Positions 1 through 33,795 of a stretch of 37,768 nt of DNA are shown here, in pieces. The first letter of the stretch is position 1. The number at the start of each line of letters is the position of its first letter. The notes beneath the pieces were generated by a model, which ran no database searches, was not told the origin of the DNA, and saw only the letters and a list, made by a program, of their open reading frames with translations. Source of the DNA: a virus (lineage: Duplodnaviria > Heunggongvirae > Uroviricota > Caudoviricetes). The stretch is from the IMG/VR virus record IMGVR_UViG_2526164599_000010; one strand, written 5' to 3'. Position numbers and translations under genes: made by a program.

Positions 1-211
1 ACCAGTGCCACTGACAGCCCCAGTGAAACGCTGGCAGCCACCGCAAAAGCGGTGAAAATTGCGATGGATAATGCCAATGCCCGTCTGGCAAAAGCCGGAA
101 CGGAGCAGATATTCCCAATAAGCCGCTGTTTATCCAAAACGTCGGTTTACAGGAAACGGTAAATCAGGCTTCTGGCGCATTACAGAAAAACCAGAATGGC
201 GCAGATATTCC
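1..211. repeat. Inverted-repeat arm (gin-proximal side) of the invertible tail-fibre segment; mirrors 5499..5710
   Basis: By eye: 1..94 equals the reverse complement of 5617..5710 and 95..185 equals the reverse complement of 5525..5615; a single A is missing between 94/95 relative to the partner; identity decays at 186..211. Repeat reaches the window edge, so true length is unknown. Confidence 0.9.
130..155. other. gix-like recombination site (gixR-like) for a Gin/Hin-family invertase
   Basis: Sequence TTATCCAAAACGTCGGTTTACAGGAA: 26-bp imperfect palindrome with half-sites TTATCCAAAAC / GTTTACAGGAA, matching the recalled gix/hix architecture; identical inverted copy at 5555..5580. Confidence 0.8.
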
Positions 212-772
212 AAACAAAGATAAATTTACGCAAACAATAGGTGCTTGCCGCTCTTTTCATGGTGCTATTAGCACAGGTGCAGGAAACTGGACGACGGCAC
301 AATTGATTGAATGGCTGGATTCTCAAGGGGCATTCAATCACCCATACTGGATGTGCAAATGTTCATGGTCATACGGCAATAATAAAATTATTACCGATAC
401 TGGCTGTGGAACTATTCATCTTGCAGGTTGCGTTATTGAGGTTATGGGTAATAAAGGAGCCATGACCATCCGTGTAACCACCCCGAGCACTTCCAGCGGT
501 GGCGGAATTACTAACGCTCAATTCACTTATATTAATCATGGTGATGCTTATGCTCCTGGCTGGCGACGAGACTACAACACGAAAAACCAGCAGCCTGCAT
601 TTGCTTTAGGGCAAACAGGAAGCACTGTCGGAAATGATAAAGCTGTTGGCTGGAACTGGAATAGCGGGGTCTATAACGCAAATATTGGTGGCGCAACAAC
701 ATTAATCCTACATTTCAATATGAATACGGGGAGCTGCCCTGCTGTACAGTTCCGCGTGAATTACAGGAACGG
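156..772 (+). pseudogene. S': Alternative tail-fibre variable part S'v, 5' fragment (interrupted by IS insertion)
   Basis: Open frame (phase 0) from 72 to the IS junction at 772; same phase relative to gix as Sv on the other arm; track ORF 303..800 is this frame read through into 9 IS-encoded codons. Continues in frame at 2901 once the IS and one ACGG copy are removed. Confidence 0.8.
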
Positions 773-822
773 TGTCAGCGCCAATGATATAAGACAGTAA
801 TTCACCATTTGGATTGTCCGCT
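773..822. repeat. IS21-family left terminal inverted repeat region
   Basis: TGTCAGCGCCAATGAT...CACCATTTGGATTGTCCGCT matches the reverse complement of the right end (TGTCAACGCCAAGAT...CGCCATTTTTAATGTCCGCT). Confidence 0.7.
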
Positions 823-873
823 CCACCCAACATGTTGTTTCCTTAAGGTTCCTACACCACAAAGGGAACACTC

Positions 874-2045
874 ATGCTGAGCAGAGAGGATTTTTACATG
901 ATAAAGCAAATGCGCCAGCAAGGTGCGTATATTGTTGATATTGCCACTCAGGTTGGTTGCTCTGAGCGGACCGTCAGACGGTACCTGAAATACCCGGAAC
1001 CTCCGGCCAGAAAAACACGCCACAAAATGGCCAAACTCAAGCCGTTCATGGACTATATAGATATGCGTCTGGCTGAGAACGTCTGGAACGGCGAGGTCAT
1101 CCTGGCGGAAATCAAAGCGATGGGTTATACCGGTGGCCGTTCCATGTTGCGCTACTACATCCAGCCCAAACGTAAGATGCGGCCATCGAAGAAAACGGTT
1201 CGCTTCGAAACTCAGCCCGGTTACCAGCTACAGCATGACTGGGGAGAAGTTGAGGCTGAGGTTGCCGGGCAACGATGCAGGGTTAACTTCGCGGTTAATA
1301 CGCTGGGGTTCTCACGTCGCTTCCATGTCTTCGCGGCACCAAAGCAGGATGCTGAACATACCTATGAGTCACTGGTCCGCGCCTTTCGCTACTTCGGCGG
1401 TAGCGTGAAAACCGTGCTGGTCGATAACCAGAAAGCCGCAGTTCTGAAAAATAACAATGGGAAGGTGGTGTTCAACTCCGGGTTCCTGCTGCTGGCCGAT
1501 CACTATGGCTTCCTGCCACGGGCCTGCCGTCCACGAAGGGCCAGAACCAAAGGTAAGGTTGAACGGATGGTGAAATACCTCAAGGAAAACTTCTTCGTCC
1601 GGTACCGCCGGTTCGACAGCTTCGCCCATGTTAACCAGCTACTGGAGCAGTGGATGGCTGACGTTGCTGACAGGCGAGAACTTCGCCAGTTCAGGCAGAC
1701 ACCGGAACAGCGCTTCACGCAGGAACAGGAGCATCTGCATCCGCTGCCGGGTACGGACTTCGATACCAGCTATTTCGATATCCGTCATGTCTCCTGGGAT
1801 GGCTATATCGAGGTTGGCGGGAACCGTTACAGCGTACCGGAAAGCCTGTGTGGCCAGCCGGTATCAATACGGATCTCGCTGGATGATGAACTACGGATCT
1901 ACAGTAATGAGCAACAGGTAGCATCGCACCGTCTCTGTTCGGCTGCATCCAGCTGGCAAACCGTGCCGGAGCATCACGCCCCACTCTGGCGGCAGGTCAG
2001 TCAGGTGGAACACAGACCGTTGAGTACGTATGAGGAGCTGTTGTG

Positions 2046-2046
<1 letters not shown>
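874..2046 (+). CDS. istA: IS21-family transposase IstA
   Basis: 390-aa ORF with N-terminal HTH-like region (MLSREDFYMIKQMRQQGAYIVDIATQVGCSERTVRRYL) and integrase-core region; stop overlaps the istB ATG (TGATG at 2044..2048). Confidence 0.9.
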
Positions 2047-2839
<793 letters not shown>

Positions 2840-2846
2840 TGACCAA

Positions 2847-2896
2847 TAGCGGACATTAAAAATGGCGAAAAACGGCCAATAATCTTGGCGTTGACA
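2847..2896. repeat. IS21-family right terminal inverted repeat region
   Basis: Reverse complement aligns with the left end 773..822; ends ...GTTGACA immediately followed by the ACGG target duplication. Confidence 0.7.
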
Positions 2897-4315: not shown

Positions 4316-6076
4316 TTAAACGCTCGCTACATTATACCATGTGCCATTTATATACTTTTGAACGGGTCTGTAATAAACACCCGCAATATTATCGGCGGAG
4401 TTGGAACCTGTATCCTGAACATTTATACCAGACAATACATGACCTGAAGGGCACTGGAAGTTCCATGTTTGCCAGTTGTTCACACCATAATATTGCTGTG
4501 AGCCAAGCCGAACATCTTTCACATATCTGGAATCAATGTTACCCCAGTTGCTTGGTTGTATCTGACCGTTTACAGCAAATGTCACCGAGTTATCTGTATT
4601 TCGCTGACTATAGAAATGCCAGCCTGAATCATCACCAAGCTCTGCAACAGTTGGTCTTGACGAATTTCCCCACAAGTTAAATGATGCATTACGGGCAGCG
4701 GTATTTGCACTTGAAAGTGTGAAGAACTTACTTTCCCCAGCCTGAATACCCTTTAATGATCTTGCTGAACCATTTATAAAGCGGAATACATGCACACCAT
4801 TAGCATAAGCATCCAGCACCCCATCACCATTTTGTTTAAACCCGGTATCGTTATCTCCTAAAACTATTGAATTGCCACCCAGGGCATTAGCCGTTCCAAT
4901 CCCCAGATTTCCGCTAAAAATGGCATTAATACCGAATATTGAGTGAGAACAATAAAACCCTCGCCCATTGTTAAAATCCAGAATAGCTTGTGCGTTCGTG
5001 CTTTCTGTCGCGGGATTAGTTGCTCCCCACTTATATGTTGTTTGACCGACAGTATAATCCTGAGTTGGAACAATAACCGTTAGCCCTTCTTCAGCAGAAA
5101 CCCGCACAGGAAAAGCCCTGCCTTCAACGTAAAAAACGCTGCATACATCATCTTCTTTAAGGCTTGTTACAATGGAATGGATTGCGCGCTCATTAGTCTG
5201 ATACGTCGAAAAATAACCTGCCGCATATGAACCACGATCAGTCCAGCCACCAGGCATTACCATTCCATTGAATTCGCAGTTATTCATTGCGTAATCACCA
5301 CTGGCAGATGTGGTCGTTATAATCACTCTGGAAGCCAGCTCGCCAGTGCTGCCTGTGGAACGCCGGAAAATAACTGGATACCACTTTCCACCAACTGCAT
5401 TAGACGGCGCATTAAATGCGTACTGCCGCATTCCTTTTTTCTTATCCACCTCGCCTTTGCTGTAAACATTAATGTTACTCAGGAAGCGATCCTTATCAGG
5501 AATATCCGCGCCGTTCTGGTTTTTTTGTAATGCGCCAGAAGCCTGATTTACCGTTTCCTGTAAACCGACGTTTTGGATAAACAGCGGCTTATTGGGAATA
5601 TCTGCTCCGTTCCGGTCTTTTGCCAGACGGGCATTGGCATTATCCATCGCAATTTTCACCGCTTTTGCGGTGGCTGCCAGCGTTTCACTGGGGCTGTCAG
5701 TGGCACTGGTTAGCTGAACGAGTCCTTTTTTGTTCAGGCTGGCATCATAGATATCCAGATTTTCACGTGCTGTACGCTGTGCTGATGCCCCGGCAGTTTT
5801 AATTTCGCTGAGGTTATTTTTTATCAGCAGCGCGTTATTGCTCATAATGGCTTTAATGGACAGTGCAAGCTGGTTTAATTTTGTTTTATCCGGTTGAATA
5901 CCGGCTTCTTCCAGCGTGTTTAATAACTCCGCCTGCACAATATTAAACCAGTCCATGCCGGGCCATGTGATAACATTATTCCCGTCACCTTCTGAAAACC
6001 AGCGAACGATAGCACTACGCTGGGCGGATACGGGCGGCATGACGGTTACGCCGCTGTCGTTATCAATATAAAACAT
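4316..6076 (-). CDS. S: Tail fibre protein S (constant part Sc fused to variable part Sv across the gix site; the S-U expressing orientation)
   Basis: 586-aa ORF running continuously through gixL (5555..5580); N-terminus [26 protein letters not shown]; Gly/Asn-rich C-terminal region typical of fibre tips. Confidence 0.85.
5499..5710. repeat. Inverted-repeat arm (S side) of the invertible segment; partner of 1..211
   Basis: See the 1..211 entry; this copy keeps the S reading frame intact. Confidence 0.9.
5555..5580. other. gix-like recombination site (gixL-like) inside the S coding sequence
   Basis: TTCCTGTAAACCGACGTTTTGGATAA, exact reverse complement of the site at 130..155. Confidence 0.8.
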
Positions 6077-17481: not shown

Positions 17482-18399
17482 TTACAGGTAGTCAGCGACA
17501 ACCAGTTGCAGCTTGCCCTTCATCTCGTTGGAGACGGTGGTATTGCCATCCGCGAACAGTTCACGGTTAAGCAGTTGCTCTGCGGCTTTTTCCAGCCCGA
17601 CCGGTACAACGATATGCGTCGGCTTCAGGCCCAGCTTCTTACCGCCATCACCTTCAAAAGATCGCATCAGTTGCCAGCCCTTCCAGAGGTTATCCAGCGT
17701 CAGATCGCCTTTTACCGCGACAGCCATCTGCCAGAAGCCGTAACCGGCAGCACGGCGGGCGCTGGCACCAAACAGGAACTCGTTATCCATAAAAACGTGG
17801 TCGTCATCGATACGGGTACGTGCGACCAGCTCCGGTTTGCGGCGCTCCTGGAAAATCAGCGGTTTGACTGCGCGGGAGCAGTCCAGCAGATAGAACGGCA
17901 GACCGCTGAAGCTGTCCTGCTCAACGATGTTGGAGGTATTAACCGCGCTGCCCGTGCCGTCCACATTCGGATATACCGGATGCTCCTTGTCGAAGAAGTT
18001 CTGACCGTCATAGCACGGCTGGGTAAAGCCATCTTTCAGAAGTTTAAAAATCAGCTCATCCGGCTGAACTGCCGCAGAACGGCCCATCTCCTGAAAAATC
18101 GGCGCATAAATACCCAGATTGTCATCCTCGAAGTCATCACGGGAAATACCCACGGTGCCTTCAAACGTTTTATTGGCGATGGAGTAGCCATGCGCTTCCA
18201 TTTGCTGAATGGTTCGCTTACCCACCCATTCTTTCAGGGTCGGGAATTTACCCAGCCAGCCATAGGTATTACTGCGGGTGGAAGAGTTCACCACCATTGC
18301 AATTTTGCTGTACTGCGACGGGGCGTCTTCAAGACCGCCCTGAAAATCCTTACGCCAGGAGGTCATCAGGGCTTTAATGGATGCCGGGGTGACAATCAT
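17482..18399 (-). CDS. T: Major capsid protein (Mu T)
   Basis: 305-aa ORF MIVTPASIKALMTSWRKDFQ...; size and position match the Mu major head subunit; followed by a strong terminator. Confidence 0.85.
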   Translation of the reverse strand: MIVTPASIKALMTSWRKDFQGGLEDAPSQYSKIAMVVNSSTRSNTYGWLGKFPTLKEWVGKRTIQQMEAHGYSIANKTFEGTVGISRDDFEDDNLGIYAPIFQEMGRSAAVQPDELIFKLLKDGFTQPCYDGQNFFDKEHPVYPNVDGTGSAVNTSNIVEQDSFSGLPFYLLDCSRAVKPLIFQERRKPELVARTRIDDDHVFMDNEFLFGASARRAAGYGFWQMAVAVKGDLTLDNLWKGWQLMRSFEGDGGKKLGLKPTHIVVPVGLEKAAEQLLNRELFADGNTTVSNEMKGKLQLVVADYL

Positions 18400-19481
18400 T
18401 TTTCTTGTTCCTGTTTCATTTTCAGATACTCAGCCTCAGTAATGCCGAGCGCCTTCACTGCTGCCTGTTCATCAGCAGACAGCACCGCCACCGCCGGTTT
18501 TTCCTGCGACGGGATTTTCGCTGTGGTGGTCTGCATGGCAGATAACGCAGCGATGGGCTGTTTTTTCTCAAGCTGTGCCGACAGTGCCGCCACGCCAATC
18601 TGACCGCCAAGCTGTTCCAGATAGGTACGTTCGCTTTTGAAAATGCGGCCTTCCTGTTCCGCCTTGTCCAGAACGGCGCTCAGGCTGGCTGTGGCGCTTT
18701 GTGCAGTCGCCTGTGCCAGTTCATCACGCAGGGCGTTGTAGCTTTCCACAGGGACGTATTTCGTCAGGTCAACGGCGGCTTTCTGTGCCTTTTCCAGTTC
18801 GGCGGATAACGACGCCACTTTTCCGGCATCTGTTTCGAGCGCATCAAGCGCACTCAGGGCCGCGCTGGCCTGTTCATCGGTGATGTCTGCATTTTCGGGG
18901 ACAGTCACCCCAAGACGCGCAAGCAGCTTGCGCAGCGTTTCATTCATGGGTTTGTTCTCCTGTTGAAGGATGTCGGGAAGGTCTGCCGCCAGTGCGGTCA
19001 GCTTTTTCATGCCGGTGGCACCGGGGTCATTGGTCAGCGCAGCAAGGCGGATTTGCAGCACCGCACCGGTGGCGGTGTCATACGGAAAAACCGCAGAGAG
19101 ATAACCAAATTCGCCGTCATCGATGCGCTGCTGGGCCGCCGCCGTCCAGCGTGGGTGGATAAATAACCCTTCACCTTCACGCCACTGCATTTCATCGGCG
19201 TTAAACCAGCCAGCCGCGACGAGTTGTTCCGGGGGTAATCCTTTGTCCTTACGTAGCTGGTTATGCTCGTAATCAATCAGCACGTCCTGGTTGAGCGCGC
19301 GAATGCCTTCAACCAGACGCCCGGCAATCTCACCGTCGATGAACCACCCCTGACCACCTGTCACATCAAACGGGCGACCATCACGGGCACTGAAATGACC
19401 GGCAGGCAATAGCTGGCACCAGCCGTCATCGTCAATGGACAGCGCATTCAGTGCGGCAATGCCAATCGCGTGTTTTTTCAT
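18396..19481 (-). CDS. I: Head maturation protease / scaffold (Mu I; the C-terminal scaffold Z is expected as an in-frame internal product)
   Basis: 361-aa ORF; N-terminal protease-like domain then Ala/Glu/Gln-rich coiled-coil scaffold-like C-terminus. Confidence 0.8.
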   Translation of the reverse strand: MKKHAIGIAALNALSIDDDGWCQLLPAGHFSARDGRPFDVTGGQGWFIDGEIAGRLVEGIRALNQDVLIDYEHNQLRKDKGLPPEQLVAAGWFNADEMQWREGEGLFIHPRWTAAAQQRIDDGEFGYLSAVFPYDTATGAVLQIRLAALTNDPGATGMKKLTALAADLPDILQQENKPMNETLRKLLARLGVTVPENADITDEQASAALSALDALETDAGKVASLSAELEKAQKAAVDLTKYVPVESYNALRDELAQATAQSATASLSAVLDKAEQEGRIFKSERTYLEQLGGQIGVAALSAQLEKKQPIAALSAMQTTTAKIPSQEKPAVAVLSADEQAAVKALGITEAEYLKMKQEQEK

Positions 19482-19677
19482 GTCCTGCTGCTCATCATGG
19501 TTTGTGAGCAGTCAGTTTGCGGGAGGTGCGGGAAAATCTGGGGTTATGCTATTTGAGTAATGGAGAAAGAAAGTGAAAGGAAGATAAAACGGGATTCATA
19601 CACCGTTAAATACCGGTTTAAAAATCCCGTGGCGCGTTTTAAAAAATCTGTGCGGCTGATTTCATGTCTGATTCCGT
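19482..19677. promoter_or_regulatory. G-I intergenic region: expected site of the Mu central strong gyrase site (SGS) and late promoter PI
   Basis: 196-bp non-coding gap at the centre of the prophage, between genes G and I where the Mu SGS is described; contains the 10-mer AGGTGCGGGA (19523..19532), shared with the lys upstream region. Confidence 0.6.
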
Positions 19678-20148
19678 TTATTGCCTCAGAGCGGCGCTGA
19701 CGCGTTTTCTGATGGCATCAAAAATTTCCTGTTCCCCGGTCTTATCCAGCCCCATATAAGGACGCGCAGGAACGCCTGCCGGGCGGGGTGCCATATCGGG
19801 TGTACCGCCCCACTGATGAATGGCAGCATAAATTTTTGGCGAACCAATCAGGGCATAATCCTGTCCATAATCGGTGGTAATGCTGCGTGCCAGATCGCCA
19901 TGCAGGGTAAGAATACTGCCCGGAACAAAACCATGATCCTGACGCCATGCCTGCCACGAATCGCTCCACGCTTCCCAGCCTTTCCCTGTATCCGGGTCTG
20001 CCTGCCGTTCAAATGCCTGTTCCGTGGATGACAGCAGCGCCGCAGCCATCACACGGGGAATGGCGCGGTCACGTGTAACGGTTCCCAGTTCATCCAGTGC
20101 AAGCTGAATACGTCGCACATCCACGGCAACGTTCATATCAAGACTCAC
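19678..20148 (-). CDS. G: Virion morphogenesis protein (Mu G position)
   Basis: 156-aa ORF; conserved Mu order. Confidence 0.7.
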   Translation of the reverse strand: MSLDMNVAVDVRRIQLALDELGTVTRDRAIPRVMAAALLSSTEQAFERQADPDTGKGWEAWSDSWQAWRQDHGFVPGSILTLHGDLARSITTDYGQDYALIGSPKIYAAIHQWGGTPDMAPRPAGVPARPYMGLDKTGEQEIFDAIRKRVSAALRQ

Positions 20149-24638: not shown

Positions 24639-24912
24639 GGGTGAAAAATCCGGTGTAAAACGTTACCGGCGAATCCAGGAACAACCGATCACCTGACCTG
24701 CCGTCGCCGGGCATCCGCCATTTTCATCTCCTCAGGACAACATCCTTAGTTGCTTTATGGTGGTATGCCATGAATTGCCTGAAGCCATGGCCTGAACAAG
24801 CACATCCCGAATCTGGTGTATCAACCGGACATCAGACAATGTTGCAATCCTGAAGGCTTTTTTATGGGCACTGATTAGCTGTGCTTTGTAATTATTTTTC
24901 ATAACGTAACGC

Positions 24913-27398: not shown

Positions 27399-27423
27399 AA
27401 TAACCGGCAGGATGCCGGTTATT
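27399..27423 (-). terminator. Intrinsic terminator of the middle transcript, overlapping the C stop codon
   Basis: Minus strand reads TAA-CCGGCA-TCC-TGCCGG-TTATTTCCT; perfect palindrome AATAACCGGCAGGATGCCGGTTATT. Confidence 0.7.
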
Positions 27424-27841
27424 TTGGGCTTTCAGGTGAGAACAGATCAGGCTGATGACGCCGTGTATGCAGCTTTCTCTGGCGGGCAATAATCTGGTAG
27501 ATCTGCGGCTGGGACAGGCGGTACTGGCGACGCAGTTCTTCCATGTTACGACCATTGAACTGGCAGTAAAGCAAATCGTCGCGTAACGCGGTCAGGATAG
27601 TATCGCCACAGGGGATATAAAACTGCCGCCCGCCCAGAAAACAGGACAGGGCAACGGCCTGTTTACGGGCAAGCTCACGGGGATTGCTGACGTTCTGGCG
27701 TTTCAGTTCGTTTTCCAGAACATCAATCAGATCAACCACCGAACGGGGCCAGCGTGATTCCAGTTCCGGGGCCGGGATGTTATCAATATGTCCGATTAAC
27801 TGGCGAATTGCCGGATCGTGTTCAAATAAATCATGCTGCAT
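27419..27841 (-). CDS. C: Late-gene transcription activator C
   Basis: 140-aa ORF, last gene of the ~1.2-kb middle operon; C-terminal HTH-like region; paralogous in layout to Mor (both ..FNGRN..EL..Y..). Confidence 0.85.
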   Translation of the reverse strand: MQHDLFEHDPAIRQLIGHIDNIPAPELESRWPRSVVDLIDVLENELKRQNVSNPRELARKQAVALSCFLGGRQFYIPCGDTILTALRDDLLYCQFNGRNMEELRRQYRLSQPQIYQIIARQRKLHTRRHQPDLFSPESPK

Positions 27842-30148: not shown

Positions 30149-30468
30149 TTTGCGGCCCTCAGAATAAATTCAGGATAAAATTTCAGACTCATTTGCCGTA
30201 ACACATCCAGTGCAGCAACGGCTGCTGATTTATCGTTGCCATCAGCAATAGCGCGGAGATTTTCAATAATCCAGTGAGGACTCAGTGACTCAGCAATAAT
30301 GCCAAACCGGTACGCCATGACCTCATCAATAGCTTTTTCATGAGACGTCTCATATACAAAATTCACAAATTCATGCACTTCTTTTTTCGGCAAACCACCG
30401 GCAATCAGCAGGGCGGCAAGCTCTTCTGATTTTGAAAATACACCATTATTCATATCACTCACCTTCAC
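30145..30468 (-). CDS. Early semi-essential region protein, function unknown
   Basis: 107-aa ORF. Confidence 0.6.
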   Translation of the reverse strand: MKVSDMNNGVFSKSEELAALLIAGGLPKKEVHEFVNFVYETSHEKAIDEVMAYRFGIIAESLSPHWIIENLRAIADGNDKSAAVAALDVLRQMSLKFYPEFILRAAK

Positions 30469-33046: not shown

Positions 33047-33066
33047 TGTCAGCGCTCCTTTGCGAA

Positions 33067-33336
33067 TTAATGTTTAACCGCATTCACCGGACGTGGTACT
33101 AAATCACATTCAGCTTCCATACCCGCTTTCTTCATAGTGGTCAGCATCTCATCTTTGGCCTTTTTAATAATTTCAGGAGCCATAGTCAGGACGATATTTG
33201 CCAGTAAATCATGAGGCCCGGTATTTTCCGTTGGCGAGATATCTGCAAGACATGCTTTTGCATCCAGAACTTCTCTGCGCCCATTGCAACCGTCACTACT
33301 TTCCAGCCATGTAAACTCAAAGATAACTTTTGCCAT
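33067..33336 (-). CDS. Early region protein, function unknown
   Basis: 89-aa ORF. Confidence 0.55.
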   Translation of the reverse strand: MAKVIFEFTWLESSDGCNGRREVLDAKACLADISPTENTGPHDLLANIVLTMAPEIIKKAKDEMLTTMKKAGMEAECDLVPRPVNAVKH

Positions 33337-33347
33337 TTTGCTTCTCC

Positions 33348-33560
33348 TTATTGATTAACGGGCGTTGCATTTGTGATTTTGTTAAGTTCACAAAGCACAT
33401 TTTCTGCGTGATGATGGTTGCCGACATGAACGACCAGCCTGTGACCACCAACAAATTCAAAAGCAACACCGCCCTCAACAGTCGTTTCCATTACATTGAC
33501 ATTATCAAGGTTGATTAACTTACTAATTCCCAGATTATCGTGAATATTTATCACCATCAT
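33348..33560 (-). CDS. Early region protein, function unknown
   Basis: 70-aa ORF. Confidence 0.5.
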   Translation of the reverse strand: MMVINIHDNLGISKLINLDNVNVMETTVEGGVAFEFVGGHRLVVHVGNHHHAENVLCELNKITNATPVNQ

Positions 33561-33567
33561 TTAAATG

Positions 33568-33795
33568 CTATCTCCAGATTATCTGACAACCATTAAGACG
33601 GGCCGTCCATACAGAACGGGCCACCCCGGACTTATGCTCCATAATTCTGACCGCGTTTTTTACCAGTTCCACCGGTGGGTAAGTGATTTCAAGAATCGGA
33701 CGCGCCACGCCGAGATATGATTCATTTACATGGCTCCCGCGCGCCTGTAACCAGTTCTGCGCATCCGTTGCCATTTTTATATTTCGGGCCATCAT
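33568..33795 (-). CDS. First small gene after B; position and size fit Mu kil (host-killing protein), assignment by position only
   Basis: 75-aa ORF 15 nt downstream of the B stop. Confidence 0.6.

Follow-up and report, generated by a model that had tools for sequence, protein, structure and literature searches.

[quoted passage not shown] The DNA analysed here, called the window in the following, is a stretch of 37,768 nucleotides holding a Mu-type transposable phage on the minus strand, which is ~98-99% identical to phage Mu and, in a blastn comparison, collinear with it from Mu coordinate 339 (the window end) down through the tail-fibre genes. Both the transposase A and the activator B required of a Mu-type transposable phage are encoded in the window, with 99.8% (MuA) and 99.4% (MuB) identity to Mu, and P_I, C, MuA and MuB are all intact. 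Around the G-I gap the local identity to Mu is 98.9% over 1.4 kb, and positions can be converted there by Mu = 37537 - window position. We consider it very likely that the gap is the orthologue of the Mu G-I region, with three cis-acting elements (SGS, terminator and P_I) on the minus strand. The basis for this reading is the orthology itself, the exact register of the site, the identical right arm, the presence of the variant in viable phages, the phasing across lineages and the central position in complete relatives.

The preliminary description of this DNA had placed the interval at 19482..19677, and this was confirmed to the base, as the gap runs exactly from the ATG of I (19481, minus strand) to the TAA of G (19678..19680). 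The flanking genes are:

18396..19481, minus strand: gene I, head maturation protease / scaffold, 361 aa (PF10123, 1.3e-97)
19678..20148, minus strand: gene G, virion morphogenesis / tail completion protein, 156 aa (PF05069, 1.6e-42), equivalent to Mu_31

The gap measures 196 bp, the same length as in Mu and in 18 of 18 close relatives compared, and 192 of the 196 bases are identical to the Mu G-I gap, leaving four differences. Each of the 69 related loci with both genes has a G-I gap (173-238 bp, in one case 676 bp), which indicates a conserved feature and not chance spacing. An Rfam scan of the gap matched no known RNA family. The gap had also been described as the one non-coding interval of notable size among the head genes, which had to be corrected, since the interval 24639..24912 (274 nt) is larger and is likewise without a long ORF. 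This second interval separates the genes of the small and the large terminase, which in Mu are 7 bp apart; prophage L021 has it too, and phage vB_YpM_Tongde carries a version of 89% identity. A 56-aa protein is possibly encoded in it (24732..24902, minus strand), beginning directly behind the stop codon of the small terminase gene; the sole family match of this ORF is a weak one to PHROG 220 (E = 5e-4).

The SGS of Mu comprises 150 bp, with a left arm (-65..-26), a gate-segment core (-25..+25) and a right arm (+26..+85) (PMC6463007, Rovinskiy et al. 2019). Its right arm is essential, with the first 40 nt being critical, and its left arm is dispensable (PMC6463007); accordingly, loss of the right arm abolishes SGS activity (PMC6463007; PMC13284261; PMC10052514). 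The gap had been proposed as the location of the SGS by its position, with an alignment to the Mu sequence as a check, and this alignment supported the proposal with 147 identical bases out of 150. The gap holds most of the SGS, but the 150 bp (-65..+85) correspond to window 19575..19724 and reach 47 bp into the 3' end of G, beyond the interval first proposed. The parts of the site are:

19685..19724, minus strand: SGS left arm (-65..-26), in the 3' end of G, 0 differences from Mu
19635..19684, minus strand: SGS core, gate (G) segment (-25..+25), three differences from Mu
19575..19634, minus strand: SGS right arm (+26..+85), 60 of 60 bases identical to Mu
19658..19661: gyrase 4-bp cleavage stagger, GATT on the plus strand and AATC on the Mu strand, centre between 19659 and 19660

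The register of the site was derived from the landmark bases reported for the Mu SGS, which are +3A, +7G and +8C on the top strand and -3T, -7G and -8C on the bottom strand (PMC6463007). When every possible centre from Mu 17860 to 17899 was scored against these six landmarks, a single one, between Mu 17877 and 17878, had all of them. The 133-bp 'Mu SGS' fragment that was used in gyrase binding and supercoiling assays (Sutormin et al. 2019, PMC6379681, supplementary table S2) best fits the gyrase consensus in the same 17877/17878 register; this fragment corresponds to window 19593..19725, where the window is identical to wild-type Mu at 130 of 133 positions. In the cryo-EM analysis of gyrase on Mu217 DNA the cleavage site was named 'GATT' (PMC11626157 SI). 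As the landmarks, the Sutormin register and the cryo-EM designation agree, we assigned the stagger to window 19658..19661. In NC_000929 as well as in AF083977 a 'gyrase cut site' is entered at 17879^17880 (window 19658/19657), which marks the cut on one of the two strands.

In Mu, the right arm wraps the C-terminal domain of GyrA and presents the T segment (PMC6463007, PMC13284261, PMC11626157). If gyrase binding and cleavage and the role in end synapsis carry over from Mu by analogy, the host DNA gyrase would place its gate segment on the core and cleave with a 4-bp stagger at 19658..19661, and the right arm (19575..19634), with A/T tracts about once per helical turn, would be wrapped around one GyrA C-terminal domain. 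Such wrapping would result in unusually processive supercoiling and, because the SGS would lie midway between the phage ends, the supercoiled loop could bring attL and attR together for the assembly of the transpososome. Synapsis of attL and attR would in turn allow efficient replicative transposition.

Computed proxies for gyrase preference gave little information. In a composition-normalised correlation of strong and weak bases with the gyrase consensus the site ranks 23-24 of ~75,000 window positions (z ~3.3), which is supportive without being decisive. Raw matches to the 133-nt consensus were rejected as a measure, as GC content dominates this score (site rank ~360-400). In divergent lineages the best in-gap register is mostly found 15-20 bp after the stop codon of G, in agreement with +18.5 in Mu, and the site reaches the top five of its locus in only 5 of 17 divergent loci. 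A Fourier test of the A/T content at 10-11 bp was unremarkable for both arms (right arm 11th percentile, left arm 31st); the phasing described below becomes visible only after explicit location of the T-tract motifs.

Besides the gyrase site, the gap holds counterparts of a terminator and a late promoter annotated in Mu. For Mu, AF083977 annotates a TransTermHP terminator (17908..17953), P_I (17977..18043) and the ribosome binding site (RBS) of I. The corresponding features of the window, together with the gene of the activator, are:

19584..19629, minus strand: terminator-like hairpin and U-tract, CGGGATT...AATCCCG TTTTAT, overlapping the SGS right arm
19494..19560, minus strand: late promoter P_I (C-dependent by homology), from the AF083977 annotation, with a CATAACCCC box
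19491..19493, minus strand: RBS of I, from the Mu annotation mapped by the conversion given above
27422..27841, minus strand: gene C, encoding the late activator that P_I needs; 99.3% identity to Mu C (tblastn)

The RNA fold of the hairpin has -19.8 kcal/mol (z = -3.3; none of 200 shuffles was as stable) and is followed by GUUUUAU. In many lineages the distal part of the right arm likewise holds a hairpin with T-tail, the stems differing in sequence, which agrees with conservation of a terminator for the lys-to-G transcript; this is an observation made by comparison and not by a formal covariation test. If termination carries over from Mu, hairpin and U-tract, which lie within the right arm, probably end the lys-to-G late (lys-operon) transcript.

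The late promoter P_I, which had also been expected in the gap, was found there with 66 of 67 positions identical to Mu 17977..18043. The single change is at Mu 17977, at the upstream edge of the promoter and +100 from the cleavage centre. The activator C binds a dyad TTAT-N5-6-ATAA centred at -43.5 (PMC2582627; PMC12867686), and CATAACCCC matches the right half of this dyad. The half-site is common to P_I and P_P, and P_lys in the same window has the variant CATAATCCC. With C-dependence as in Mu, P_I would be activated by C and drive I and the downstream head genes. A simple promoter and terminator scan of 19300..19900 detected neither element: the hairpin was missed because the rules of the scan exclude its internal loops, and P_I because it has no -35 element. 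The same range contained no sigma-70 consensus promoter, as expected for an activator-dependent promoter.

The placement of the gap near the middle of the prophage could not be read from the window directly, as both phage ends are absent, and centrality (46-49%) is derived by homology. The window end coincides with the stop codon of the repressor gene c, so that the ~338-bp left end of Mu including attL is absent, and the comparison with Mu found none of gin, com, mom and attR in the window. When Mu-sized ends are added to the window, the element has an estimated length of ~39.7 kb, and the site would be located at 46.5% of it with an insertion sequence (IS) described below and at 49.1% without. 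In two complete prophages with an identical core the site is located at 49.6% and 49.8%, and in Mu at 48.7%. Deletion of the Mu SGS reduces end synapsis 30-fold (PMC3820752) and delays replication by ~100 min (PMC10052514), and relocation to 11.4 kb or 24 kb from the left end reduces synapsis 7-fold and 3-fold (PMC3820752). Measured against these relocation effects in Mu, a shift of ~1 kb caused by the IS is probably minor.

The IS belongs to the IS21 family, spans 2.1 kb (772..2896) and has no counterpart in Mu. It encodes:

874..2046: istA, 390 aa, with rve and Mu-transposase C-terminal domains
2162..2839: istB (IstB_IS21, 8.8e-81)

It lies within S'v, the alternative tail-fibre cassette of the invertible G segment; owing to the IS this segment measures ~5.4 kb in the window versus 3 kb in Mu. 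Sequence of the constant part of S is found on both sides of the G segment: window 1..221 is an inverted copy of 5489..5710 (94 nt at 100%, 132 nt at 93%), and the copied stretch is the end of the constant part of the tail-fibre gene S plus the inversion site. The start of the window resembles a junction contributed by a mixed G(+)/G(-) population, at which the contig breaks off. Mu DNA is packaged by a headful mechanism from the left end, with roughly 39 kb per head. If a headful of ~39 kb is correct, packaging of the estimated ~39.7-kb element including the IS might drop the right end.

Three of the four differences from Mu in the gap are located in the SGS core, all of them in its left half:

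19663 (Mu 17874): core position -4, A>G on the Mu strand
19667 (Mu 17870): core position -8, G>A on the Mu strand
19675 (Mu 17862): core position -16, A>G on the Mu strand

The stagger and the landmark bases +3A, +7G, +8C, -3T and -7G are kept in the window, and -8C is changed to T on the bottom strand. The three substitutions form a linked natural haplotype that is not private to the window. The combination G-A-G at Mu 17862/17870/17874 is also present in vB_YpM_5, vB_YpM_Tongde and the FDAARGOS_1059 and RM8082 prophages, T-A-G is present in D108, Mu_3F6 and the FDAARGOS_1058 and 2014C-3075 prophages, which equal the window at -4 and -8, and A-G-A is present in Mu, SfMu, E. coli W and others. 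The Mu-family phages thus have two common classes of core alleles, A-G-A versus G/T-A-G. A 301-bp region 100% identical to the window was found in two E. coli genomes, and target duplications of 5 bp (ATCAG and ACCAC) border both complete prophages that have the identical core. The occurrence of the haplotype in isolates and in duplication-flanked prophages indicates that the allele occurs in plaque-forming phages and in intact-looking transposition products. L021 and L092, the two prophages whose gap is 100% identical, have early modules other than those of the window and no IS, and L092 also has a different repressor. Prophage L092 is located in NZ_CP151071.1 (E. coli 22KM0354), where three places match the gap region; this prophage is complete, has a D108-like repressor and lies within an adhesin gene. 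The early (semi-essential) region in which L021 and L092 differ from the window comprises 30151..30444 and 33061..33569, two segments without a megablast match to Mu in the blastn comparison, which to judge by their sequence are replaced or diverged modules.

The position of the substitutions raises the question of whether the strength of the site is altered. The -7G/-8C dinucleotide is the place of one of the two bends induced by gyrase, and the up-mutation nuB103 was placed at -3 as a T>C exchange on the bottom strand, the nuB alleles being described as transitions (PMC6463007). The -4 substitution is a bottom-strand T>C exchange as well and adjoins the reported position of nuB103, and the -8 substitution alters the bend dinucleotide. 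As the substitutions lie in the core, at the bend dinucleotide and beside nuB103, the SGS strength could differ from that of Mu in either direction. We therefore put forward, tentatively and as a rather unlikely proposal, that the haplotype -4G/-8A/-16G is a natural variant in SGS strength like 'nuB' and that the phased TTTT(G/A)AA triad described below is a family-wide signature of the right arm. Should the reconstructed numbering be off by one, the common natural -4 allele would be nuB103 itself. A further core change, G17881C (+4), is present in addition in the E. coli RM8082 prophage; at this position the experimental fragment of Sutormin departs from the GenBank sequence of Mu and has the same base as RM8082. 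G17881C was considered as a possible nuB allele, but it is a transversion, whereas the nuB alleles are described as transitions; its natural occurrence in RM8082 points to a natural polymorphism and not necessarily to a nuB laboratory mutation.

A more far-reaching consequence of the same substitutions would be that the gap is a transcription boundary only, composed of terminator and P_I, with a gyrase site that is weakened or inactive. All three changes sit in the gate segment, where -8 changes the -7G/-8C bend dinucleotide and -4 no longer agrees with the published consensus (T>C as read on the fragment), and the proxy gyrase score at the site is not the maximum of the window. The net consensus match is nevertheless unchanged, with one match lost, one gained and one neutral, and the core motif of gyrase is degenerate (PMC6379681). 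The essential right arm is identical to Mu. Moreover, the -4 and -8 alleles are shared with D108, the full haplotype occurs in plaque-forming isolates, and in the complete prophages that carry this allele the 5-bp target duplications look fresh and the site is centred. We thus regard a mere transcription boundary as improbable and retain the reading of the gap as an orthologous SGS with terminator and P_I.

The gap had been described as not obviously repetitive, a statement that overlooked three helically phased T-tract motifs:

19637..19646, minus strand: motif 1, TTTTTTAAAA (+14..+23), at the right-hand edge of the core
19617..19624, minus strand: motif 2, TTTTTAAA (+36..+43)
19606..19610, minus strand: motif 3, TTTAA (+50..+54)

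Motifs 2 and 3 fall in the part of the right arm that was reported as critical (+26..+65). The comparison with other lineages is based on an alignment-based scan of IMG/VR with the G protein (68 loci, G proteins 51-100% identical) and a scan of species-representative genomes with the same protein (2 loci, an Enterobacteriaceae MAG and Citrobacter braakii); clustering of the gaps at 90% identity resulted in 20 lineages. Motifs of the type T3+[GA]A2+ are present in the gap in 18 of these 20 lineages, two to five each and mostly three, with a density of 28.3 per kb in the first 110 nt of the gap versus 1.04 per kb in the coding flanks. Almost all spacings between them (40/42) are 10-12, 20-22 or 31 bp, equal to one to three turns of the helix. 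An ungapped profile aligned at motif 2 reads aaa.t.tTTT.AAcGC(N9)tTTT.AA.GgGtTTT.AA and contains 1.17 bits per column at the motifs versus 0.44-0.49 in neighbouring gap columns, so that no other part of the gap is as conserved. The triad has spacings of ~20-21 and 11 bp and a near-fixed distance from the stop codon of G and persists in loci whose G protein is only 51% identical, and the surrounding gap is not conserved. This conservation in distant relatives argues for selection on the arm well beyond Mu itself. It also fits the view that the right arm acts through anisotropic bendability, its AT repeats being turned toward the C-terminal domain of GyrA (PMC11626157, PMC6463007).

An array of this kind could in principle be bound by another bending or regulatory protein such as IHF, Fis, HU or a phage factor. 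The repeat unit tTTT.AAcGC looks sequence-specific and is conserved across lineages, and the formation of the Mu prophage domain also requires IHF, Fis and HU (PMC3820752). On the other hand, DNase footprints and cryo-EM locate the arm at the C-terminal domain of GyrA, its AT repeats turned to the protein (PMC11626157; PMC6463007), the motif spacings are multiples of ~10.4 bp as predicted by anisotropic bending, and the SGS literature compared reports no other protein site in the right arm. A binding array for a different protein is therefore highly improbable, and we continue to assign the motifs to gyrase wrapping.

The idea that the gap codes for a small protein can practically be dismissed: two deposited records annotate gap ORFs, D108 'gene 31.5' on the Mu strand and the 46-aa ORF VUD37893 of Mu_3F6, which stays open in the window (19560..19700, plus strand), but 'gene 31.5' lacks a standard start codon (the first residue of its translation is Ile), the SE11-type gap (71% identical) has stops in all six frames so that no gap ORF is conserved there, and the RefSeq annotation of the prophages examined calls no gene in the gap. 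Both annotated ORFs are probably spurious.

The feature as such is already known, as it represents the Mu SGS and P_I in a phage ~99% identical to Mu, and there is nothing new in kind. The Mu SGS is needed for efficient synapsis of the Mu ends and for replication, it is the best-studied strong gyrase site and it serves as a standard gyrase substrate in single-molecule and cryo-EM work. In most deposited records of the Mu family the gap is either unannotated or carries doubtful small ORFs, and the coordinates of stagger, core, arm, terminator and P_I can be transferred to these records. As by-products, the two natural core alleles and the conserved phased motif of the right arm are possibly useful to gyrase research; if the triad is indeed a signature of the family, it could be used to predict SGS right arms. 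Oram and Pato have reportedly worked on SGS sequences of Mu-like prophages.

Among the known gyrase sites, pSC101 par, pBR322 and the chromosomal BIME/REP elements share preferential gyrase binding and cleavage and match the 130-bp periodic gyrase motif (PMC6379681), but they have no sequence homology to the site described here and are without a Mu-type right arm. Inserted centrally into Mu, they fail to sustain its replication, and among the alternative gyrase sites tested in Mu only the one from the Sakai Mu-like prophage could substitute (PMC10052514). Resemblance in sequence hence does not guarantee equal function. Closer to the window are the gaps of the E. coli SE11 type, of Citrobacter braakii and of the IMG/VR loci, which measure ~175-240 bp and carry the phased TTTT(G/A)AA triad at a similar distance, a hairpin with T-tail and a C-box-like CATAAcCC. 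Core and spacers have diverged in these distant relatives: the SE11 version, found in E. coli SE11 and two other genomes, is 71% identical, and the others are unalignable. Compared with Mu itself, the element in the window differs by the IS in the invertible segment, which would shift the site slightly off-centre, by the three core substitutions and by the one at +100 at the upstream edge of P_I. It shares with Mu the flanking genes, the 196-bp gap, the AATC/GATT stagger, both arms, the terminator hairpin and the downstream P_I.
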